From a virus (lineage: Duplodnaviria > Caudoviricetes): a stretch of DNA of 64,000 nucleotides. The stretch is from the IMG/VR virus record IMGVR_UViG_3300042542_005523; one strand, given 5' to 3'. Shown in pieces: positions 29,304 to 58,773 of this stretch; position 1 is the stretch's first letter; the number at the start of each line of letters is the position of its first letter. The position numbers and the translations under genes were made by a program. Under the pieces are notes generated by a model, which made no database searches, was not told where the DNA came from, and saw nothing but the letters and a program-made list of their open reading frames with translations.

Positions 29304-29996
29304 ATGGATTATTATGTTTATGTCTATCTAGATCCCAGAAGTCCTGGGTTTTACCAATATGGAGAATATAATTTTGATTATGAGCCTTTCTATATAGGAA
29401 AGGGAAGAAATTGGAGGTTTAGAAATCATTTATTAAAAGTTAAAAGAGGTAAATATCAGAATTTGCCAAAATTTCATACGATAAAACAAATATTGGAAGC
29501 TGGGATGGAACCGATAATTATTAAATATATTGAAAATTTAAACGAATCAGAATCTTTTACCATAGAGGAGGATATGATTCAAAAAATTGGCAGGAGAGAT
29601 CTAAAAAGGGGTCCTTTAAGAAATCTCAGTAATGGAGGAGAAGGTAACGGTAACAGAAAATTTACCGAGGAACATAGAAAAAATTTAAGTGCTTCTAAAA
29701 AAGGCGTAGTTACCGAAAATTTAAAAAGCCATCTTGCTAACCTCCATAAAAAATTAAAGGGAAATAAACATACGCTGGGGCTTAAATTTTCCCAGGATAC
29801 TAAAAATAAAATGATAGCATCTAGGATAAAACCTATCCTTAAGATTTCCTTGGATGGGACAATTTTGGAGGAGTTTTCTTCCATAAAAGAAGCAATAGAA
29901 AAAACTAACATAAATCCAAAGACAGTTCTGAGAGGGATTGGAAAAACCGCGGGAGGATTTATCTGGGCCTATAAAGATAAAAAAAATAATGCTTAA
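29304..29996 (+). mobile_element. Free-standing GIY-YIG homing endonuclease (NUMOD3/NUMOD1-type C-terminus)
   Basis: YYVYVY...FYIGKG..R...H, EE.MI, N...GGEG; HRKNLSASKKG; KTAGGFIWAY; lower GC than flanks. Confidence 0.85.
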
Positions 29997-31512
29997 ATTT
30001 ATAGTATCTGACGATCACCAATGGCTTGTCCTAACCCAGTCTCCTGACGAGGTTGAGAAGAAGCAAATTGAGATATCGATGACTAAGAAAATACACAACC
30101 ACTTTTTCCATCCTTTGGTCAAGAAAAAAATATGGGACGGTAATGTCTGTTTCATAGAAAAGAAAGGACCATTCTGGAGAGTTCCTATAGGCTTGTGGAG
30201 AGAATTGATGCAGATAGGTGAAGAGTATAAAATAGAGATAGAGATAGACGGGCTAGCAAATATCATCAACCAGAAATTGACATTAGAAGAATTTACGGAG
30301 TGGTCTAATGAATTTTTTGATGATGCAGATAAAAAGCCCAGAGATTACCAGATAGAAACTGCATGGAAGATTATCAAATATAGATATTCTGTTTCAGAGG
30401 TAGCTACTTCCTCCGGGAAGACACTTATATCCTTTATGATATTCGCTTATTTGAAAAGCCAGGGCCTCATTAGGAAGTATATGATGATAGCACCTAATAC
30501 TAACCTTGTCATACAGGCAAGTGAGGATTTTGATGACTATGGCCTACAGAAACTGGGGGTTAAAATACAACAGATCGGAGCAGGTAATAAACTAAGACCA
30601 GGATGTGATCTAATAATAGGTACATTCCAGTCCCTAGTGAAACAGGAGGCTGAATTTTTCGAAGAAGTTGATGCTGTATTCGTGGACGAAGCACACCATA
30701 CTAATTCAATGTCCATCAAGAAGATAGTAGCAAAATGCATGCATTCCCAATGGAGATATGGACTTACCGGTACTTTAACAAAAAGAGGAACAGCGGACTA
30801 TTTAACCATACAGCAGTTTCTTGGTCCATTGGTTGTTGAGATACCACCTAGCTTCCTTTTTGAAAATAATTATGCAACCCCGATATCAATAAAGGTTGTC
30901 ATTCTAGATTGGCTCGAGCAGGAATATAAGGACAAGCTATCCGAATTGAAGCTAAATCACGGTAATATAGAGGGAACAGAGATTTATAACGTTGAGAGGA
31001 GGATGGTTGTTGAATCCAAGAAGAGGATCAACTATATTGTTGACTTTATATCGAAAATCTCCAAAAATTCACTGGTCCTATTTCAGTCTGTGAAGGACGA
31101 ATATGGCAAACAAATATTCAATCTAATAAGAGATAAGAATAACGATAAGGAAGTTTTTTATGTTGATGGTGACACCGACGAGAATTTAAGGGAGGAGTAT
31201 AAATCAAGAATGGGTTTCGGAGAGAATAGAATCTTGATAGCAACATACGGAACATTTGCGACAGGGATTTCTATTAACAATCTTCACAATATCTTTCTTG
31301 TTGAATCATACAAGAGCGAGGTCTTAATCAAGCAAAGCTTGGGAAGAGGAATGAGAAAAATGGAAGGAAAGGAGAAAGTTAACGTGATAGACTTTGTTGA
31401 TGATTTCAGTAGTCCCAAATATCAGAATTATCTAATGAAGCACAGCCTTGTTAGAATCGAGATCTATAAAAGAGAAGGATTTTCTTATAAAGTATTCAAG
31501 GTTAAGCTTTAG
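29989..31512 (+). CDS. uvsW: UvsW-like SF2 DNA helicase
   Basis: PRDYQ, ATSSGKT, DEAH, GLTGT, FATGISI.NL and QSLGRGMR; likely start is ATG 29989. Confidence 0.9.
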   Translation: MLKFIVSDDHQWLVLTQSPDEVEKKQIEISMTKKIHNHFFHPLVKKKIWDGNVCFIEKKGPFWRVPIGLWRELMQIGEEYKIEIEIDGLANIINQKLTLEEFTEWSNEFFDDADKKPRDYQIETAWKIIKYRYSVSEVATSSGKTLISFMIFAYLKSQGLIRKYMMIAPNTNLVIQASEDFDDYGLQKLGVKIQQIGAGNKLRPGCDLIIGTFQSLVKQEAEFFEEVDAVFVDEAHHTNSMSIKKIVAKCMHSQWRYGLTGTLTKRGTADYLTIQQFLGPLVVEIPPSFLFENNYATPISIKVVILDWLEQEYKDKLSELKLNHGNIEGTEIYNVERRMVVESKKRINYIVDFISKISKNSLVLFQSVKDEYGKQIFNLIRDKNNDKEVFYVDGDTDENLREEYKSRMGFGENRILIATYGTFATGISINNLHNIFLVESYKSEVLIKQSLGRGMRKMEGKEKVNVIDFVDDFSSPKYQNYLMKHSLVRIEIYKREGFSYKVFKVKL

Positions 31513-31523
31513 CGCTAATTTTT

Positions 31524-31531
31524 GATATATA
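31524..31531 (+). promoter_or_regulatory. Putative late promoter box GATATATA
   Basis: About 15 nt upstream of 31547. Confidence 0.55.
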
Positions 31532-31546
31532 GAATAAAAATTTCTT

Positions 31547-32101
31547 ATGAAAATCAAGAATTTTGACCGATTCATATCGGAGAATAGAAGATATTATAGT
31601 TCAGATCAGAGATACGGTCCTTTAAAGGGGAAGCTTTCCATTTTCAAGGACAGAGAAAGATCTAGCGATATAGGAAACTGGTTAGAGGATATAAAGGGAA
31701 GGGTTAAGAGTGAGATGGTAGCCAGAGCGGATAGACCAGGAAAGACTAAAAATCTAGGAGATCCTTTGGGAGTTTTAGGTTCGATATCTGGTTTTCTTCT
31801 TAATCTAGGAGCTGGAGTTAGCGATGCCCTTTTCGGAGACGCTAAAAAAGGAGAAGACTATAAAAAGAGAAGCAAAGAGGATTTAGACAGATGGGAAAGA
31901 AAAACATTTAGCGGGGATCAGAAAAAAGTTACAGATAAGGATGCTGCTAGTTTTTACATGAATGGTGTGGAAAGAGGCAAGAAAATTTTCGGTAAAGACT
32001 TCGATCCAGACAAACCAAAGACTGAGGAAGAGAAAAGATATGCTGAGGATCTATACGATGCAACATCGAGATATTACGGTAGAATAAATCAAAAGAGATA
32101 A
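31547..32101 (+). CDS. Hypothetical protein with CTS-like N-terminus (MKIKNFDRFISE)
   Basis: Charged ORF; the N-terminal motif is shared with other ORFs in the window. Confidence 0.6.
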   Translation: MKIKNFDRFISENRRYYSSDQRYGPLKGKLSIFKDRERSSDIGNWLEDIKGRVKSEMVARADRPGKTKNLGDPLGVLGSISGFLLNLGAGVSDALFGDAKKGEDYKKRSKEDLDRWERKTFSGDQKKVTDKDAASFYMNGVERGKKIFGKDFDPDKPKTEEEKRYAEDLYDATSRYYGRINQKR

Positions 32102-32108
32102 AGAGATA

Positions 32109-33035
32109 ATGAGATTAAAAAATTTCGTTGAGTTTAAGAATGTATCTGAAGGCGGGAAGGCTATTAAAAGCGCTAGACCAATCAGACAGGACGAAGCTAT
32201 GAAAACTATAGAAAATATAAAGGAGGTTTTATTACCTCTTTTAGATCTTGATTCCTATAAAGAGGGAAAGGATTATATTTTTATAGGCTCAACTGGAAAA
32301 AAGAAAAATCCAGAGGACACGTCCGGTGATATAGATCTTGGATTTAACGGAAATTATTTTGCTACCAAGCATGGCATATCATTTAAAGAGTGCTCAAAGA
32401 CTCTCATGGATATGCTAAGTCCCGAACTACCTAAAGTTCTTGGATTTGAGCCTGAAATGAATAATCTATCTGGACTGAATATACTTAGTGTAGCTTGGCC
32501 AATAGCTGGTGATGCAAATAACGGGTTTGTTCAATTGGATCTTATGCCTCTTCAAAATATGGAATGGGCGAAGTTTATCTATTATTCACCTGATTATAGA
32601 ACGGACGAAAGCCAGTGGAAATCTGCTCATAGGAATTGGCTTTTGAGTGCAGCTCTTGTTGCAAGGAGGGAGATATTGGCTAATGATGAGCAAGGTGAGG
32701 TTTTAGATTACAGAACACCTGCTTTGATCCTGCCTAGTGGTTTATACCTTCAAACCAAAAGCTTTAGAGGTAAATTAAAGCCAAGATTAAAAAATGCCCA
32801 GAAGATTCCAGGAACGGAGGAATTCATAACAGACGATCCTCAGGAATTTATAAATTATGCTCTTGGACCAGGGTACAGCGAGAATGATGTTAAAACATTC
32901 GAAAAAGTTTTATCTATAATGACTTCTCCGAATTTCAAATATAAAGAATTTCTTCCCCAGATAAAGGAGAAGTTTATACAATTACTAAATAGAACAGATT
33001 TACCAGTTCCACCTGAGACAGAAAAATTAGGTTGA
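32109..33035 (+). CDS. Pol-beta-superfamily nucleotidyltransferase with CTS-like N-terminus
   Basis: IG(60)S(61)TGKK...SGD(74)ID(76)L and third Asp in VQLD(144)L; N-terminus MRLKNFVEFKNVSE. Confidence 0.75.
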   Translation: MRLKNFVEFKNVSEGGKAIKSARPIRQDEAMKTIENIKEVLLPLLDLDSYKEGKDYIFIGSTGKKKNPEDTSGDIDLGFNGNYFATKHGISFKECSKTLMDMLSPELPKVLGFEPEMNNLSGLNILSVAWPIAGDANNGFVQLDLMPLQNMEWAKFIYYSPDYRTDESQWKSAHRNWLLSAALVARREILANDEQGEVLDYRTPALILPSGLYLQTKSFRGKLKPRLKNAQKIPGTEEFITDDPQEFINYALGPGYSENDVKTFEKVLSIMTSPNFKYKEFLPQIKEKFIQLLNRTDLPVPPETEKLG

Positions 33036-33075
33036 AACAAAAGTAAATTTTAAGTTAAAATTAAAAAGCGAATTT

Positions 33076-35016
33076 ATGTCGAGTATTTCCCATCTACAGG
33101 ATCTTTACCACAAAAAAGGGAACGAGTTTATCAACAATCTCTTTAGCTCCTTCGTGACAGTGAACGAAAAGATGGACGGTTCTGCGTTCACATTTGAACG
33201 CGATATCGATAATGGTAAGTTTAAGTTTTATAAAAGGGATCAAAGAAATCCCATCACGATGGTTGACCGAACCATTATGAAGTACTACGAGAAACCCATA
33301 CAGTACATAGAGTCACTTCCGCCCCACATAATACAATTGATACCAAGAGGATGGAGATTTGGATTGGAATATTTCTCTTCACCCCAGCCACTTGAGATTG
33401 CTTACGATAGAGTGCCGAATAACAATCTCATTCTTTCATACGTCCATAAATTGGATAACGGTAGAGCAAAGTCAACTATACAGAGTAAAGAGGATCTAGA
33501 TAAATGGGCTGATTTACTGGGAGTGGAAAAACCTCCTATTATTTTTCAGGGGAAATTAACAGATGGCCAAAAAAGAAGTATCCTTGAGTTTATAAACACA
33601 CCATTCTCTGATCTAATAGAGGAATTTAGAACAAAGAGCTTTGTAGCTTACATAGTTGGTGTTTTAAATCCTAAATTGGAAAAGACAGCATTGAATAATG
33701 ATCTAGAAAAGGCAATCGAAGGTATAGTATTTAGATTTGGCTCTGATGAGGAAGGTGAAGAACCTGTTTTAGCAAAAATGGTAGATCCGCTTTTCACCGA
33801 GCTGGCAAAGAGTAAATATGTCCAGAAGAAAGAAACAAAGCCTAGCGATTTCCTAGTTATAACTGTTCTAGATGTTATGAACTTCATACTAGAAAAGGGA
33901 GTTGGTAGTTTTGATTTTAAGGGGAAGACCGAAGACGAAAGATATCTTTCTTTCATTTCCGATGTGTTTGTTAACTTCTTAGATGAGTATAAGGAGAAGT
34001 ACAGCGAAACTGATTTCGAGGAACCTGAATATTTAAAGAAGGACGAGTTTAGAGTCAATAAGAAAATGGTTCCAAATAGAGCTGCTCTTGCCTATATAGA
34101 AGAAGATGATGCTTTCGAATCCCTATATAAATTGATTGTTAACCAGTTTAGAAAAATAAAAAAGAGAGCTGGTGGAATAATAAATCAGGATTTCATAGAT
34201 CAGTTCAATTCAGTCGTGAAAGAGATAGAGGAAGCTATTTCTGAAAAAGAGGCTAAGAAAATAAACGAATCAGAGATACCTTCTTTTAATGATTTCAAAT
34301 CTAAATTTAGAAAGAAAGTGGAGTATGTCACCGAGGAATCAGATAACGAGTCTGAAGAACCCCAACCATACGGCGAAACTTTCTCGCAATTCATATCAGA
34401 TCTTGAGCATATAGACACAAAGGAAGTTAAAAATGTAGCTCCGCTAGAAGAGGATTCTAATAAAGATGAATTAAAGCCAATTAATATTATCGTTGGCAGA
34501 TTCCAACCTTTCCATAAAGGTCACTTAGCAATGGCGAAAGAGCTAAAAGAGGAAAATGATTTACCATCTATAGCTATTGTAGTCTACCCTGGCCACAATA
34601 AATCTGGCAAATCCCCATTCGACGAGAATGTTATAAAGACTTACATGGAGTCTGTTGTTAGAGAATACCCGGATTTGCTGAGTGGATTTCTAATTGTCAA
34701 TAAAGGTCTTTTAGGTATTATAGCTGGAGAGGTTAGAAACATAGGCTATAGAATAGAGTTAATAGGAGCGGGTGAAGATAGAGTTGATGATTATAACAAG
34801 CAAGTAGATTACCTGGTTAAAGCGGGCAAGGAATTTCCAACCACTACAAAGATCTTTAAAACTAAAAGAATAGCTAGCTCAAGTGAGGTAAGAGATAAAC
34901 TCAAGAATGAGGATTTCACAGCATTTAAGAAGTTAGTACCACCTTGCGTCGCTTCATTATACGCAACCCTTGTTTCTGGGGTACATAACGGATTAAAACA
35001 AAGTTCTAAAAAGTAA
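33076..35016 (+). CDS. RNA/DNA ligase-like nucleotidyltransferase fused to a HIGH-motif (cytidylyltransferase/NMNAT-like) domain
   Basis: N-terminal EK(32)MDG (motif I), GLEYF, EGIVF (IV), LAKMV (V); C-terminal GRFQPFHKGH, SPF, GEDR, SSSEVR. Confidence 0.75.
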   Translation: MSSISHLQDLYHKKGNEFINNLFSSFVTVNEKMDGSAFTFERDIDNGKFKFYKRDQRNPITMVDRTIMKYYEKPIQYIESLPPHIIQLIPRGWRFGLEYFSSPQPLEIAYDRVPNNNLILSYVHKLDNGRAKSTIQSKEDLDKWADLLGVEKPPIIFQGKLTDGQKRSILEFINTPFSDLIEEFRTKSFVAYIVGVLNPKLEKTALNNDLEKAIEGIVFRFGSDEEGEEPVLAKMVDPLFTELAKSKYVQKKETKPSDFLVITVLDVMNFILEKGVGSFDFKGKTEDERYLSFISDVFVNFLDEYKEKYSETDFEEPEYLKKDEFRVNKKMVPNRAALAYIEEDDAFESLYKLIVNQFRKIKKRAGGIINQDFIDQFNSVVKEIEEAISEKEAKKINESEIPSFNDFKSKFRKKVEYVTEESDNESEEPQPYGETFSQFISDLEHIDTKEVKNVAPLEEDSNKDELKPINIIVGRFQPFHKGHLAMAKELKEENDLPSIAIVVYPGHNKSGKSPFDENVIKTYMESVVREYPDLLSGFLIVNKGLLGIIAGEVRNIGYRIELIGAGEDRVDDYNKQVDYLVKAGKEFPTTTKIFKTKRIASSSEVRDKLKNEDFTAFKKLVPPCVASLYATLVSGVHNGLKQSSKK

Positions 35017-35020
35017 CTGA

Positions 35021-36106
35021 ATGCAGGTTTCAAAAGGAAAACCTAAAAAATCAGAAACGCCGGAGGATATAGTTGCTTTAGAAATAGAGCAATGTAAATC
35101 TATTCTTGGTTCCATGTCCGATAGATTGGAGAAATTTGATTTATCCGGTGTAGACGAAGCCGGGCTCAGAAAGCTGAAAAAACTAATAAAGAATATAAAA
35201 AGCTCTTCCTCTCTTGTAGATATTATACACGATAATAATAAGAGATCTAGCCAGATTATAGAAACACTATATAAAGTATTCTTTAGCAGGTCTAACGAGG
35301 ATTCGCGTATTATGTTCAGAAAGGGATACGTTGAGGATTTCTACATTAATCTAGATCCTGCTACCTTAGATACCATAGAGAAAAGATTCATTAAAAAACA
35401 GCCAATCAAGGGGTCTATAAGTTTCTCCGATGCTGTAAAGAACGGTACAACTGATATAGGATGGATTGATAGTTTTAATGGAATCTCTAGAAAAGACCTG
35501 AAGGAGATTTATACTATAGATGCCTACTTTCCAAGCGGTAAAAGAAGAAGAGGTAAGGGTGAAACTCTTTCTTGTCTTTCTTTTGGTGGCTTTATCAACA
35601 ATGAGAGGGGAGCGGATGTTTTTATAGACGGCAATCGTGTTGAAGTAAAGTCTACTATAAGCGCATCTATTACCAGCGAGGATAATCTGGTATCCCCTAA
35701 GATTAAGCAGTTTATAGATCTGTCATATAGGATAAGTGGCAAATCAAAAAAGAAGGAGAAAACATACGGTAAGAGATCCCTGAATCTTCTCATAGCTAAG
35801 ATAAAATCTAGTCAAGTAAAGGCAAACGAGTTCTGGAAGAGATTTCACCAGATAGTTGGATTTAGGACCGACCGTGATCCGGATAAGATAGTTCCAATAT
35901 TAATATGTCATCAGATAGAGCATTACTCTAAGCCAGAGAACTTTAACACGATGATAATCTATAGTGAGAATACAGGGGGATTTCCAGATGCCCTTTCCGT
36001 TCTAGTGAAGAATGAATCATTTGTAAACGATCGAAACATAGAGATACTTAACGACTTGAATATATACTTCAGGGTTTATCCCAATAAGGTAGAAATATTT
36101 TTATAA
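35021..36106 (+). CDS. Putative PD-(D/E)xK nuclease-fold protein
   Basis: GKGE...ADVFIDGNRVEVK resembles a restriction-fold E...D-x(n)-ExK active site. Confidence 0.45.
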   Translation: MQVSKGKPKKSETPEDIVALEIEQCKSILGSMSDRLEKFDLSGVDEAGLRKLKKLIKNIKSSSSLVDIIHDNNKRSSQIIETLYKVFFSRSNEDSRIMFRKGYVEDFYINLDPATLDTIEKRFIKKQPIKGSISFSDAVKNGTTDIGWIDSFNGISRKDLKEIYTIDAYFPSGKRRRGKGETLSCLSFGGFINNERGADVFIDGNRVEVKSTISASITSEDNLVSPKIKQFIDLSYRISGKSKKKEKTYGKRSLNLLIAKIKSSQVKANEFWKRFHQIVGFRTDRDPDKIVPILICHQIEHYSKPENFNTMIIYSENTGGFPDALSVLVKNESFVNDRNIEILNDLNIYFRVYPNKVEIFL

Positions 36107-36107
36107 A

Positions 36108-36650
36108 ATGGCTTCAATTAAAAAATTTAATGAATTCTTAGAATCTGTTTTCGAGTCCGATGGATTTGGAACAAAACCCTTTCTTTTAAGGAAAGAAAAG
36201 GACATCTTTAACTATCTCTTCTACATAGACACAGGAGAGGAAGGAAAACAAGATGCCTTTAGACTTATGATTGGTAAATACTCAAGCCATCAGGTTATAG
36301 ATCAGCCTAAGAACTCATATTGCGTGCTTAGCGTTAATAAGCTATCATCCGAACAACTAGAGGATATATCGGTAACCAAAGCTGATTTGCCACCTACGAC
36401 ATCCTCAGAGTTTAAAATGTCGGAAAGCGAGGTATCTAGACTATTCGAAACCATTTCTAAATGTATTTTGGATTATCTGGAGTATAATGCTAAAGTATCT
36501 AAGATTTACGACGAGATACAGGATAATCTAGTTTTCTCCGGTGAAGGCACCTATATGGAATTTATGAAATCTATAATTATTTCATATTTAGGCGAAGATT
36601 GGAGTGTACAGGAGGGAGTTGATAAAAATTCAATTTTAATCTCCAGATAA
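36108..36650 (+). CDS. Hypothetical protein with CTS-like N-terminus (MASIKKFNEFLES)
   Basis: ORF; shared N-terminal motif. Confidence 0.6.
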   Translation: MASIKKFNEFLESVFESDGFGTKPFLLRKEKDIFNYLFYIDTGEEGKQDAFRLMIGKYSSHQVIDQPKNSYCVLSVNKLSSEQLEDISVTKADLPPTTSSEFKMSESEVSRLFETISKCILDYLEYNAKVSKIYDEIQDNLVFSGEGTYMEFMKSIIISYLGEDWSVQEGVDKNSILISR

Positions 36651-48443: not shown

Positions 48444-49085
48444 ATGAATTCTAGCATTAAAAGATTTTCCGATTTTGTAAACGAAAGGGAGCTTCCTGAT
48501 AAGCAGGGAAAAATAATAGTTCTACTTGGCCCTCCTGGATCAGGGAAAGGTACTCTAGCAAAGGGACTAATAAAGGACTATGATTTCCAGCACATCTCAA
48601 CAGGTGATCTAATTAGAAACTCAGACGATAAGGAGCTGAAGAAAATCATAGCAAATGGAAAGATGATTCCAGATGATAAGATGCTTGAGATACTAAAGGA
48701 AAAAGTTAAGGAACTTGATTTAGAAAAAAATATAGCATTTGACGGATTCCCTAGGAATATAGAGCAATCTAAGATGCTAGATAAAATGCTAGGTAAGCTA
48801 GGTCTTGGTTTAAATTATGCTATTTTCTTAGACCTTCCAAGAGAAGAAGCAATCGATAGATTAAAGAAAAGAGCTAAAGAAGAGGGAAGGAAGGACGATG
48901 CTAGTTTTGAAACTATTAACAAGAGATTTGACGAGTATCTTGAAAAGACTTTACCTCTGATAGAGCTTTACACTAAAAACAGGAAAGTCAAGAGAATAGA
49001 CTCGTCTGAAGGGAAGGATGCGGTTTTGTCTAATGTTGTTGATGCTTTGGGCTTGAAAAAGTCCAAGGAGCAAAATAAAGGATAA
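48444..49085 (+). CDS. adk: Adenylate kinase (short LID) with N-terminal CTS-like extension
   Basis: GPPGSGKGT, HISTGDLIR, FDGFPR and R.DD; extra N-terminus MNSSIKRFSDFVNE. Confidence 0.92.
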   Translation: MNSSIKRFSDFVNERELPDKQGKIIVLLGPPGSGKGTLAKGLIKDYDFQHISTGDLIRNSDDKELKKIIANGKMIPDDKMLEILKEKVKELDLEKNIAFDGFPRNIEQSKMLDKMLGKLGLGLNYAIFLDLPREEAIDRLKKRAKEEGRKDDASFETINKRFDEYLEKTLPLIELYTKNRKVKRIDSSEGKDAVLSNVVDALGLKKSKEQNKG

Positions 49086-51073: not shown

Positions 51074-51595
51074 ATGAAACACATTAAAATTTACGAGAAC
51101 TTTGTTTCGAATGTTAACGAGAGCTCAATCCCGGTTTACGACGATACTGCATTTAATAAAACAGGTGGTGAACCAGAAATGAACGTTAGCCCACTTAAGG
51201 CAATTGCTGTTATTCAAGATTTATTGGATCAGAAAGCAATGGGAGAAGTTGACGAGGTAACCGTAGTAGCTGAAATACCAACACAAGGAAAAACTAAGCC
51301 TGTGTACGTGGATGAGGTTATCGCAAAAGCAAAAGAGGAAGCTGCTCTTAAGTACAGACGCGAAACTGGAATAGATATAGAAAAAGCTGCACCTTCAGAT
51401 ATCGAAAGAGCTGGTGTTATGCAAGATGTTTTCTTTGATTCTGAATTTATTGTGGATAGAATCGATAAAAGCGCTGATGGAACATTCATCGTTTGCTATC
51501 CTCAAAGCTTGTCTGCTAAGGCTAAGACTAATCCTGCTCACTATTCAGTATATTTAAAGCCAGAGCAAATTGAAGAGGTTCACTACTCTTACTAA
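51074..51595 (+). CDS. Hypothetical protein with CTS-like N-terminus (MKHIKIYENFVSNVNES)
   Basis: Monocistronic, between a promoter box and a terminator. Confidence 0.6.
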   Translation: MKHIKIYENFVSNVNESSIPVYDDTAFNKTGGEPEMNVSPLKAIAVIQDLLDQKAMGEVDEVTVVAEIPTQGKTKPVYVDEVIAKAKEEAALKYRRETGIDIEKAAPSDIERAGVMQDVFFDSEFIVDRIDKSADGTFIVCYPQSLSAKAKTNPAHYSVYLKPEQIEEVHYSY

Positions 51596-56907: not shown

Positions 56908-57269
56908 TGGACCTTATTCTTTTTCTACTCGTCTCATTTTCATTTTGCTACTTGGTGGTAACCTCCTATATAGTAGCTCCTGTTAGAAATTACTTTCTAG
57001 TAAAATATCCATATATTGGGAAACTACTTAGCTGCATACAGTGCTTTGGATTTTGGAGCGGCTTTCTATTTTCATTGCTTTCTTATTTTGGGTTAATCTC
57101 TATCAATCAAGATAATATTAGATACTCAGATATCCCTATATTGAGTTTTTTCCTCTGCGGACTGCTAGCAAGTCTTTTCTCTGTACTGGCGAATTCCCTT
57201 ATTTTTTATCTAAACTCTAGAGATATATACATTATAGAAAAAGATAAAAAAAAGAACCAAAATGAGTAA
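56904..57269 (+). CDS. Small membrane protein, DUF1360-like
   Basis: Three hydrophobic segments with P.R...GKLLSC.QC.GFW.G. Confidence 0.55.
   Translation: MMDLILFLLVSFSFCYLVVTSYIVAPVRNYFLVKYPYIGKLLSCIQCFGFWSGFLFSLLSYFGLISINQDNIRYSDIPILSFFLCGLLASLFSVLANSLIFYLNSRDIYIIEKDKKKNQNE
57222..57229 (+). promoter_or_regulatory. Putative late promoter box GATATATA
   Basis: About 32 nt upstream of 57262, inside the upstream ORF. Confidence 0.45.
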
Positions 57270-58773
57270 AGTAAAAAGCTGGACAGATTTTAATAAATTC
57301 TCATTCAGTACTATCGCTATAAACGAGAGTGATCCAGCACAAGTACTTAGCGACGAGAATGCTAAAGCTGCTGAACAAATAAGGAAGTATCTAAAAGAGA
57401 AAGGGGTAAGCGTAGATGGAATCACAATCGACTTCTCTTCCGACGGCGTCGAAGCAGCCCCAAAGGAAGATCCTAATAAAACTGTATCCTATTCTACAGG
57501 TGGAGTTACAGGTGGAGATAGAATTAGGGGTGGAGATAGAATTGGACACACAGGTGCTCACAGCTCAAGTTCGAACGATAAATTAGGAAATTTAGCTGAT
57601 ACCCTTGCTGATGCTGCTGAGTATGCAGGAAGAGGACTTGGAAACACTATCAAATCAGATTCGACGACGTTCGGTAGTGCGCTTAGTGCTGATGGTAGAA
57701 AACAGATTAAAGATTATTTCTTCGGTACCGGTGGAGAAGTGGAAACAATAGGTGGTGGCGTTTCAGGATTTGCAGCTTTTTCAGGTTCTTCTTTAAATGG
57801 TGGTATAGATGCTTCCAACCAGGAGTCATATCAAAACAAAAAAACAGAGGTTCTCAAGACTGAAAATCCCGATCTTAGTAAAGCCACGAGCAATTTAACT
57901 CAACCAAACTACTATAATATAGGTAAACCCTCTTTTGTTGGATCAAAAGAATATAAGGATATACTTGATTCCATAGGAAAAAATAGAAAATCCGCACTTA
58001 GATTTTTGGAGGATATAGGAGTTGATACTGAACTAATAAGGGAAAGAGAAAATCACTTAGTTGCTCTTAGATCCTCTTTAGATATAAAGAATTCTTATCC
58101 GAACGATTTTACTGACTTTTTTATATTGTTCAAAATTGATGGTGATATTGACACATTTCTGGGAAGTACAACACCATCACCAGCATTTAGAGTTAAAGAG
58201 TGGTACGACTATCTCATTAAAATAGGATTTACAAAACTAATAGTTCAACAGGGATCATATATTTTAGACCCGGGTGTTTATAAATTTGTGATAAAAGATA
58301 CTGATACGAAAAGTAAATATTTCGGTTCATCTATTTTACAGCAAGACGGAACCTCTAATTTTCATAAATATGGATTGATGGGGAGTGCAGCTGAGGCTAA
58401 AAGGACCAACACATTCTCTCCTGGTAGTCTTGAAAAAGGAAGAATTGATCTTTGTATAACTCCTGCTCTACCTGAAGGAAGAAATGCAGACGGATTAGAT
58501 GCTACGACATCGGGAGATCAGGTTATAAAGAACGCGAAATCATTTGATAAGATACTAGCAGCAGCTAAATCTAATCCTTCAGCAACTCTTCCTTATATTC
58601 TAGCAGAAAATAACGGGGTTAAATCTAAAAGAGAGGAGAGAAGGGAGAGAAGAGAGGAAAGGAAAGAAGAAAAGAAGGGCACAGAGAAAGCTGAAGTAAA
58701 TGCAGAAGATGCAAAAGTTAACGAATCTTTCAGCCAAAATGGTATGAAATACCTTAAAAAATTCGGCGAATAA
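57262..58773 (+). CDS. Hypothetical 503-aa protein with CTS-like motifs at both termini
   Basis: Starts MSKVKSWTDF...INES and ends VNES...MKYLKKFGE; Gly-rich internal region. Confidence 0.6.
   Translation: MSKVKSWTDFNKFSFSTIAINESDPAQVLSDENAKAAEQIRKYLKEKGVSVDGITIDFSSDGVEAAPKEDPNKTVSYSTGGVTGGDRIRGGDRIGHTGAHSSSSNDKLGNLADTLADAAEYAGRGLGNTIKSDSTTFGSALSADGRKQIKDYFFGTGGEVETIGGGVSGFAAFSGSSLNGGIDASNQESYQNKKTEVLKTENPDLSKATSNLTQPNYYNIGKPSFVGSKEYKDILDSIGKNRKSALRFLEDIGVDTELIRERENHLVALRSSLDIKNSYPNDFTDFFILFKIDGDIDTFLGSTTPSPAFRVKEWYDYLIKIGFTKLIVQQGSYILDPGVYKFVIKDTDTKSKYFGSSILQQDGTSNFHKYGLMGSAAEAKRTNTFSPGSLEKGRIDLCITPALPEGRNADGLDATTSGDQVIKNAKSFDKILAAAKSNPSATLPYILAENNGVKSKREERRERREERKEEKKGTEKAEVNAEDAKVNESFSQNGMKYLKKFGE

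Follow-up and report, generated by a model that had tools for sequence, protein, structure and literature searches.

What would a phage do with a small nucleotidyltransferase, an RNA-ligase-like domain fused to an adenylyltransferase, and a putative nuclease encoded one behind the other? The question is raised by positions 32,109-36,106 of a 64,000-nt stretch of DNA (the window, to which all coordinates refer) from a Caudoviricetes virus, IMG/VR record IMGVR_UViG_3300042542_005523. The three open reading frames (ORFs) of this interval, ORF1, ORF2 and ORF3, were confirmed on the + strand where an earlier note had placed them from the DNA letters alone. They were analysed together with the flanking ORF0 and ORF4, and the five form a tight + strand row:

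31547..32101, + strand: ORF0, 184 aa, charged, with an N-terminal tag resembling the capsid-targeting sequence (CTS) of T4, MKIKNFDRFISE
32109..33035, + strand: ORF1, 308 aa, predicted minimal family-X-like palm-plus-thumb nucleotidyltransferase
33076..35016, + strand: ORF2, 646 aa, predicted RNA-ligase-like domain plus HIGH adenylyltransferase
35021..36106, + strand: ORF3, 361 aa, PD-(D/E)xK motif
36108..36650, + strand: ORF4, 180 aa, with an N-terminal CTS-like tag

The architecture of this cassette is an undescribed variant of known enzyme kinds. The earlier note had taken the three genes for a counter-defence module. The reading we favour, tentatively and at a little under an even chance, is that the cassette performs cut-fill-seal repair of breaks with 3'-OH and 5'-phosphate ends. 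Break repair fits the anatomy of the cassette better than counter-defence does.

Enzyme modules of the cassette

ORF2, the largest protein of the row, divides into two predicted enzyme modules separated by helices and a linker:

33076..33825, + strand: RNA-ligase-type covalent nucleotidyltransferase domain, residues 1-250
33169-33171, + strand: motif I lysine K32 of this domain, which also holds motif III E98, motif IV E215 and motif V K234
33826..34260, + strand: all-helical module, residues 251-395, high-confidence helices in the model
34261..34470, + strand: acidic linker, residues 396-465, with two tag-like F-x-x-F motifs
34471..35016, + strand: HIGH-type (HxGH) adenylyltransferase domain, residues 466-646
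34513-34524, + strand: H480-x-G-H483
34876-34893, + strand: SSSEVR

The N-terminal half of ORF2 is predicted to adopt an RNA-ligase fold, nearest to that of T4 Rnl2, and the modeled fold is nearer to RNA ligases than to DNA ligases. An AlphaFold model built from 123 relatives reaches a pLDDT of 93.6, and the best 40 PDB matches that Foldseek returns for the N-terminal module are all RNA ligases. The top match is full-length T4 Rnl2 (E 5e-7), with an alignment spanning about 372 columns. The module has the adenylyltransferase fold of the ligase/capping superfamily and a lysine nucleophile in motif I (KxxG; here KMDG, residues 32-35), and hhalign superimposes E31-K32-M-D-G onto E34-K35-I-H-G of the T4 rnlB product. 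E98, E215 (within EGIVF, residues 215-219) and K234 follow one another as expected, each in a fitting sequence context. Searches of the module against PDB sequences, by single sequence and by profile, gave nothing significant, and the Pfam RNA_ligase model PF09414 scores 22.5 bits on residues 27-224, under its cut-off of 27; relative P0248 passes the same model with 29.3 bits.

ORF2 has at least 608 homologues and ORF1 has 376, so these ORFs are not chance. Searching residues 1-400 of ORF2 against 1.84 billion representatives retrieved 527 relatives, each a cluster representative at 50% identity. The match begins at the N-terminus in nearly all of the 150 relatives listed, and the lengths cluster at ~400, ~600-700 and 950-1290 aa. 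Both the ligase and the HIGH domain are present in 94 of 150 representatives. The helical module always follows the ligase domain and is conserved over the 527-member family. The motif I lysine is kept in 94/123 family sequences, with Q, N, D or M in most of the others. Members such as P0304, P0318, P0338, P0348 and P0360 have lost both this lysine and the HxGH histidines (e.g. DRFQPITMDH), a pattern that points to a subgroup of catalytically dead derivatives with another role.

Statements on whole genomes are based on five related IMG/VR records. Each complete relative (G003-G006, the records behind L037, L043, L027 and L059) carries four ligase-type genes, namely a gp30-like DNA ligase, an Rnl1-like ligase, a canonical Rnl2-like ligase that matches PF09414 with E 1e-24 to 1e-30, and the ORF2 family member. 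ORF2 is therefore an extra, divergent ligase paralogue with a role of its own, neither the replicative ligase nor the obvious tRNA-repair ligase.

The C-terminal domain of ORF2 is, by its sequence, a HIGH-type adenylyltransferase. It passes PF01467 (CTP_transf_like; 27 bits, cut-off 21) and TIGR00125 (31.2 bits, cut-off 27.7), and it contains both signatures of the HIGH superfamily, (H/T)xGH as H480-K-G-H483 and SxxxxR as S601-R606 (SSSEVR, residues 601-606). The stretch GRFQPFHKGH (residues 474-483) is identical in the M. jannaschii NMNAT MJ0541. A profile of 57 HIGH domains retrieves NMNAT/NadM (E ~1e-6) and NaMNAT from the PDB, and PPAT over a longer stretch. Specific NMNAT models fall far short, with 23.8 bits against a cut-off of 181.2 for the equivalog TIGR01527 and 28.3 against 127 for PRK01153. 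PPAT and NaMNAT fit the family profile about as well as NMNAT does, so the acceptor may be nicotinamide mononucleotide (NMN) or another substrate.

The earlier note had also proposed that the cassette rebuilds NAD+. A Nampt-like gene (PF04095) occurs in 4/5 related genomes, including the one 97% identical to the window, at a distance of about 80 kb from the ORF2 domain. PF01467 matches no other protein than this domain in the four genomes, which keeps an NAD+ salvage role alive as a possibility. That part of the proposal stands as possible; assignment as a true NMNAT is what the equivalog scores fail to bear out. In G002, the 97%-identical relative, Nampt lies ~83 kb from ORF2, so that the gene linkage typical of NARP2 is missing, and one complete relative lacks Nampt and keeps the HIGH motif. 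Stand-alone HIGH domains of 162-166 aa are encoded between hoc-like and gp26 genes in Stenotrophomonas phage Moby (L090) and Xanthomonas phage X1 (L091), and match the ORF2 C-domain profile with E 1e-25 to 1e-30. The neighbours of these two genes gave no match to the ORF1 or ligase profiles. Both phages are cultured and T4-like, and could serve as experimental models.

ORF1 is predicted to be a minimal nucleotidyltransferase of palm-plus-thumb architecture, like Pol beta and the Pol X of African swine fever virus (ASFV). Its relevant features are:

32109-32150, + strand: N-terminal tag, residues 1-14
32286-32291, + strand: G60-S61, palm GS motif
32328-32336, + strand: D74 and D76, catalytic carboxylates
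32538-32540, + strand: D144, third carboxylate

G60, S61, D74, D76 and D144 are invariant in an alignment of 57 ORF1 sequences, giving a palm with hG[GS] and a three-carboxylate triad. The predicted structure (pLDDT 92) has the palm-plus-thumb arrangement of family X and only ~25 residues before the palm, where no 8-kDa or fingers (HhH) domain is found. Foldseek matches to the PDB have weak E-values only, and every one of them belongs to the Pol-beta superfamily. TUTases, CD-NTases, OAS and CCA enzymes align over just ~100 palm residues, and identification of ORF1 as a CD-NTase or CCA enzyme was rejected on these grounds. A Pfam scan of ORF1 and each of 57 homologues gave only noise and no match to PF14792 or PF14791, and single-sequence and profile searches against PDB sequences found nothing significant. 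The family is broad, phage-borne and nameless, and includes a protein of Agrobacterium jumbo phage Atu_ph07. The ESM Atlas has further viral clusters in which an ORF1-like fold is joined to CTP_transf_like domains, and an archaeal cluster in which it is joined to a PDDEXK_1 nuclease.

ORF3 is a putative PD-(D/E)xK nuclease by its classical motif:

35561-35563, + strand: E181
35615-35617, + strand: D199
35642-35644, + strand: E208
35648-35650, + strand: K210

R177-G-K-G-E181, D199, E208 and K210 are invariant in 18 ORF3 relatives; the N-terminal ~140 residues appear to lie outside the putative nuclease motif region. ORF3 has no Pfam, PDB sequence or PHROG match, a Pfam scan of all alignment members included (noise only).

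At the level of single domains the earlier note thus read the locus well. Its Pol-beta nucleotidyltransferase agrees with the invariant GS/DxD/D residues and the fold matches of the ORF1 model, its ligase with the Foldseek and hhalign results, its HIGH nucleotidyltransferase with PF01467 and TIGR00125, and its PD-(D/E)xK-like protein with the invariant E/D/ExK motif. Its interpretation as a whole is partly supported.

Proposed break repair and competing explanations

Gene fusions and the conserved neighbourhood support treatment of the cassette as a functional unit. In close relatives, ORF2 homologues of 1000-1037 aa correspond to ORF2 and ORF3 in a single chain; residues 674-1012 of P0012 are 40% identical to ORF3, and the equivalent figure for P0015 is 35%. 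An iterated search of C-terminal extensions detected the GxGE...D...ExK core in 13/38 long family members, more distant fused forms in which the E/D/ExK residues are kept and whose N-terminal module is 31-66% identical to that of the window. No Pol X-like GS...DxD motif was seen in the C-terminal extensions of the long homologues. ORF4 is fused to an ORF2 homologue in P0114 and P0248. Since distant members too have the ORF2-ORF3 fusion, the nuclease is an old partner, which in this phage has become a separate gene and in most close relatives has disappeared. Selection by ORF1 (42-100% identity) gave 80 IMG/VR loci, and all of them keep the order UvsW-ORF0-ORF1-ORF2-(ORF3)-ORF4-Hc1, so that the neighbourhood check proposed by the earlier note comes out positive. 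ORF1 adjoins ORF2 in all 79 loci that reach beyond ORF1. On a marine contig (L088:3-6902), the gene for a 152-aa HhH-GPD glycosylase overlaps the start of a 1288-aa ORF2 homologue, and a 402-aa protein encoded two genes upstream has a weak ligase motif I match.

In a cut-fill-seal pathway, the ORF3 nuclease would make or trim breaks, giving 5'-phosphate and 3'-OH ends; ORF1 would extend the 3'-OH, perhaps with ribonucleotides as bacterial LigD does; and the Rnl2-like domain of ORF2 would close the nick via a K32-AMP intermediate. The fused HIGH domain would serve the adenylate side, most simply by making NAD+ or another AMP-phospho compound from ATP or, less likely, by acting on the 5'-adenylylated end itself. 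Candidate substrates are phage DNA, an RNA-DNA hybrid or structured RNA, and the RNA-ligase character suggests nicks with a 3' ribonucleotide. A PD-(D/E)xK nuclease leaves 5'-phosphate and 3'-OH ends, a polymerase extends a 3'-OH, and in duplexes an Rnl2-type ligase connects the 3'-OH with the 5'-phosphate. With this common end chemistry an end-healing kinase or phosphatase is not required, and the cassette has none. What points to break repair is the fusions, together with a location amid gp32, UvsW, glycosylase and polymerase genes and the glycosylase gene on L088.

Several observations weigh against this pathway. ORF3 is found in just 4/80 loci, so the nuclease is dispensable in most close relatives. 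The whole region is syntenic, and adjacency of ORF1 and ORF2 alone is therefore weak evidence; the distant huge phage LR756500, which encodes UvsW and a 653-aa ligase-HIGH protein, has no ORF1 relative beside the latter. The motif I lysine is lost in 24% of family representatives, so that catalysis is not universally kept, and some members have both catalytic motifs degenerate. The HIGH domain, moreover, has no obvious task in such a pathway. It could act as a true NMNAT, provide some other adenylylated cofactor or, speculatively, work on an NAD-like AppN end; the quarter of the family that has lost K32 and often retains TxGH is compatible with this last idea without demonstrating it. Lak phages have an ORF1 relative and gave no ORF2 relative in a tblastn search.

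The N-terminal tags suggest a different explanation, in which the proteins are packaged in the phage head. The first residues of ORF0, ORF1 and ORF4 fit [IL]-x-x-F-x-x-F, and hydrophobic-x-E comes within the next 3-10 residues. Homologues preserve this tag, it is retained inside ORF2-ORF4 fusion junctions, and two copies (IPSFNDFKSKF and ETFSQFISDLE) lie in the ORF2 linker, for which the family consensus keeps E-S-x-x-P-x-F-x-D-F. In direct comparison, T4 IPII and IPIII start with MKTYQEFIAE and IPI with MKTFKEF...ITE. The CTS-like tag that the earlier note saw on the nucleotidyltransferase is a real conserved motif resembling the T4 signal; its role in packaging is putative. In T4, gp21 cuts off the CTS, which measures 10 aa and stands at the N-terminus (PMC10229621, PMC3012670), and a Peptidase_S77 (gp21 family) gene is present in 4/4 complete relatives. 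The same tag (x-K-x-F/Y-x-D/E/N-F ... hydrophobic-x-E) also occurs in the window on an adenylate kinase and two ORFs without Pfam match (48444-49085, 51074-51595 and 57262-58773). If the tags direct packaging, ORF0-ORF4 would be head-internal enzymes injected with the genome, ORF2 and its longer fused relatives would be polyproteins cut by a gp21-type prohead protease at hydrophobic-x-E sites linked to the tags (ORF2 between its halves) rather than vehicles of coupled chemistry, and the HIGH domain would be a true NMNAT working with the phage Nampt. The phage would then inject a ready polymerase, ligase, adenylyltransferase and nuclease together with its DNA, and these could mend or process the incoming genome and restore adenylate or NAD pools before phage gene expression. 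The Nampt-like genes of four relatives, in which ORF2 supplies the sole PF01467 match, the NMNATs that are the best solved matches of the HIGH domain and the GRFQPFHKGH shared with MJ0541 all agree with such a scheme. It is nonetheless unlikely in our judgment: neither the tag, found on adenylate kinase, nor the GATAWATA box described below, found before dUTPase, is restricted to structural genes, and the NMNAT score, the distant Nampt gene and the relative that lacks Nampt and keeps the HIGH motif all speak against it.

Counter-defence by RNA repair, in which ORF2 reseals ribotoxin-cut tRNAs or other RNAs and ORF1 rebuilds their 3' ends, is distinctly improbable. The ligase fold is nearer to RNA than to DNA ligases, and T4 Rnl1 with Pnkp offers a precedent (PMC3884662). 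Resealing of tRNA, however, has no use for a PD-(D/E)xK partner, ORF1 is like templated Pol X enzymes and unlike CCA-adding enzymes, and the complete relatives are already equipped with an Rnl1-like and a canonical Rnl2-like enzyme for sealing. Ribotoxin breaks carry a 2',3'-cyclic phosphate and a 5'-OH and require a kinase/phosphatase; beyond its absence from the cassette, the phosphatase half of polynucleotide kinase-phosphatase gave no match in five related genomes with the single Pfam model PF08645. The idea that ORF1 makes or ORF2 destroys cyclic or linear signalling nucleotides of the CBASS/Thoeris type is barely credible. CD-NTases among the weaker fold matches of ORF1 speak for it; ORF1 itself is Pol X-like and not a CD-NTase. 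None of the five row proteins convincingly matches a defence-system model in PADLOC (a row for ORF3, type IV Cas5 with E 0.002 and no passing stretch, was judged chance), and the cassette sits in a replication and repair core. The counter-defence module of the earlier note is a guess, and the RNA end repair and signal-nucleotide manipulation it offered as functions are without positive support.

Two further possibilities were weighed. Lysine-independent adenylylation is a long shot. Here the HIGH domain would use ATP to adenylylate the 5'-phosphate, or would reverse abortive adenylylation, and the ligase-like domain would only seal. AppN is chemically an NAD-like dinucleoside pyrophosphate; we know of no HIGH-family enzyme that works on polynucleotide ends. 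The ligase-HIGH fusion is persistent (94/150 representatives), several of the representatives without K32 have an intact TxGH/HxGH, and the Rnl2 adenylyltransferase domain alone can catalyse step 3 (PMC3884662). On the other side, NadD and NadR failed to cap RNA in one report (PMC8131947), K32 loss has no clear link to the presence of the HIGH domain and is not clearly commoner in fused (24/94) than in unfused (9/50) proteins, and members with both motifs degenerate exist. We give little credence to a mainly non-catalytic role, as a scaffold, DNA-binding or head-internal protein with enzyme folds as relics. The subset without motif I lysine and HxGH histidines would fit it, as would the most conserved residues of the N-terminal module (E31, D64, R65, Y71 and Y99), not all of which belong to classical ligase motifs. 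K32, E98, E215, K234, HxGH and SxxxxR are all intact, however, in the window protein and its whole clade, and the catalytic residues of ORF1 and ORF3 are invariant.

Genomic setting and transcription signals

The source is of a lake-water T4-like jumbo phage type, whose complete relatives measure 319-434 kb and have terminal repeats. Sequencing runs from lakes or other freshwater, 19 in all and drawn from 18 studies, contain 85-100% of the sampled words of the stretch; five of these are possible sources of the DNA. The row is preceded by a UvsW-type SF2 helicase gene and followed by an Hc1-like gene, and gp32 is also among its neighbours. Rather than in an accessory island, the cassette lies within a syntenic replication/repair core that includes gp32, UvsW helicase, glycosylase and polymerase genes. 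Immediately before the UvsW-type helicase gene (29938-31512), and overlapping its start, comes a GIY-YIG (LEM-3/NUMOD) homing endonuclease gene (29304-29996). Such an endonuclease gene is found in 3/80 related loci, and its position parallels that of segE immediately before uvsW in T4. In 6/80 loci (among L008-L087) the helicase is matched as two ORFs, suggesting that the gene is split or interrupted in some relatives.

In most of the 80 loci ORF0 lies next to ORF1 on its upstream side. ORF0 has no Pfam, PHROG, NCBIfam or PADLOC match, and PHROGs, PADLOC and NCBIfam likewise returned nothing for ORF1, ORF3 and ORF4. The gaps within the row are 7 nt (ORF0-ORF1), 40 nt (ORF1-ORF2), 4 nt (ORF2-ORF3) and 1 nt (ORF3-ORF4). 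A terminator scan detected no terminator-like site in the + strand gaps between the genes; the sole + strand site of the row is within ORF1. An 8-nt tandem repeat, AAAGAGAT twice (32092-32107), spans the ORF0 stop and ORF1 start. In a strain from run X15 with one copy fewer, the junction becomes an overlapping TAATG and both proteins are unaltered.

A short box before ORF0 recurs elsewhere in the window:

31524..31531, + strand: box GATATATA, candidate promoter of the row, 15 nt before the ORF0 ATG
3698, 10509, 21247, 25335, 31524, 37436, 44359, 48432, 51041, 57222, 59343 and 63972, + strand: GATAWATA boxes

Each of the 12 + strand GATAWATA boxes falls between genes; for 11 of them an ORF is listed, with its ATG 7-60 nt further on, and these ORFs include dUTPase, adenylate kinase and ORF0. 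The window total of 13 equals the chance expectation, and only the placement stands out; it does not look random, and the box is a candidate promoter. In a freshwater-sediment metatranscriptome (RNA library X20), contigs 90-97% identical to the window cover parts of ORF1-ORF4, the uncovered parts being uninformative. Two of them span the ORF2/ORF3 and ORF3/ORF4 junctions, which is compatible with co-transcription or, given that DNA carry-over is possible, with residual DNA.

Relation to known systems

We found no paper that describes the ligase-module family of 527 representatives or its fusion to a HIGH domain, and none on DUF6267; public annotation of the ORF2 family reads "cytidyltransferase-like" only. 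What Rnl2-type ligases do for a phage during infection is still not known (PMC3884662). In the present data a divergent Rnl2-like module makes up a large phage family, nearly always N-terminal, usually fused to a HIGH domain and often to a PD-(D/E)xK nuclease, and in one jumbo-phage clade it always adjoins a minimal Pol X-like enzyme. This architecture opens direct and cheap biochemical tests of the partners of Rnl2-type ligases. Should the repair reading be true, the cassette would be a viral counterpart to LigD or to minimal repair sets of the ASFV type; should the tags serve for packaging, the load of enzymes injected by this phage would be unusually rich.

The tag shares with the CTS of T4 internal proteins an N-terminal K-x-F/Y-x-E/D-F followed by hydrophobic-x-E, and relatives of the window phage have a gp21-family protease. 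It differs from the T4 signal in being longer and more variable and in standing on enzymes and inside a linker.

With the T4 Rnl2/REL1/NgrRnl branch of ATP-dependent RNA ligases, ORF2 shares the E-K-x-x-G of motif I, aligned with E34-K35 of Rnl2, and a helical module after the catalytic domain, a possible counterpart of the C-terminal domain of Rnl2. ORF2 also lies near a UvsW-type helicase gene, as T4 rnlB lies 3 kb from uvsW. Identity to T4 Rnl2 is only 13-16%. Unlike T4 Rnl2, ORF2 is fused to a HIGH adenylyltransferase, its family often to a nuclease as well, the motif I lysine is not kept throughout that family, and the phage lineage has a separate canonical PF09414 ligase besides.

ORF1 shares with family X (ASFV Pol X and the palm-thumb of Pol beta) the palm GS and three aspartates followed by a thumb-like domain, and like ASFV Pol X it has no 8-kDa or fingers domain. 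It differs in lacking a sequence-level match to PF14792 or PF14791 and in having ~45 additional C-terminal residues and the N-terminal tag; templated synthesis by ORF1 is putative. The HIGH domain resembles archaeal NMNATs (MJ0541, NadM) in GRFQPFHKGH, in SxxxxR and in its best profile matches in the PDB, and lies far below their equivalog cut-off. NatV of phage KVP40 and the NARP2 pathway are the phage comparators. The Nampt-like gene of related genomes recalls NARP2; unlike the NMNAT systems compared, ORF2 has no Nudix partner domain and is fused to a ligase instead.

As a set, the cassette is closest in logic to LigD and to the Pol X, ligase and AP endonuclease of ASFV, which likewise bring a small polymerase, an end-processing nuclease and a ligase together in one locus or polypeptide. 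All three catalytic folds of LigD are unlike those of the cassette: LigD has a primase-type polymerase, a ligase with an OB domain and a PE domain that is not PD-(D/E)xK, and it has no HIGH domain. The setting differs as well, in that no Ku was found in the five genomes related to the window phage. A preference of the ligase for a 3' ribonucleotide would match the logic of LigD.

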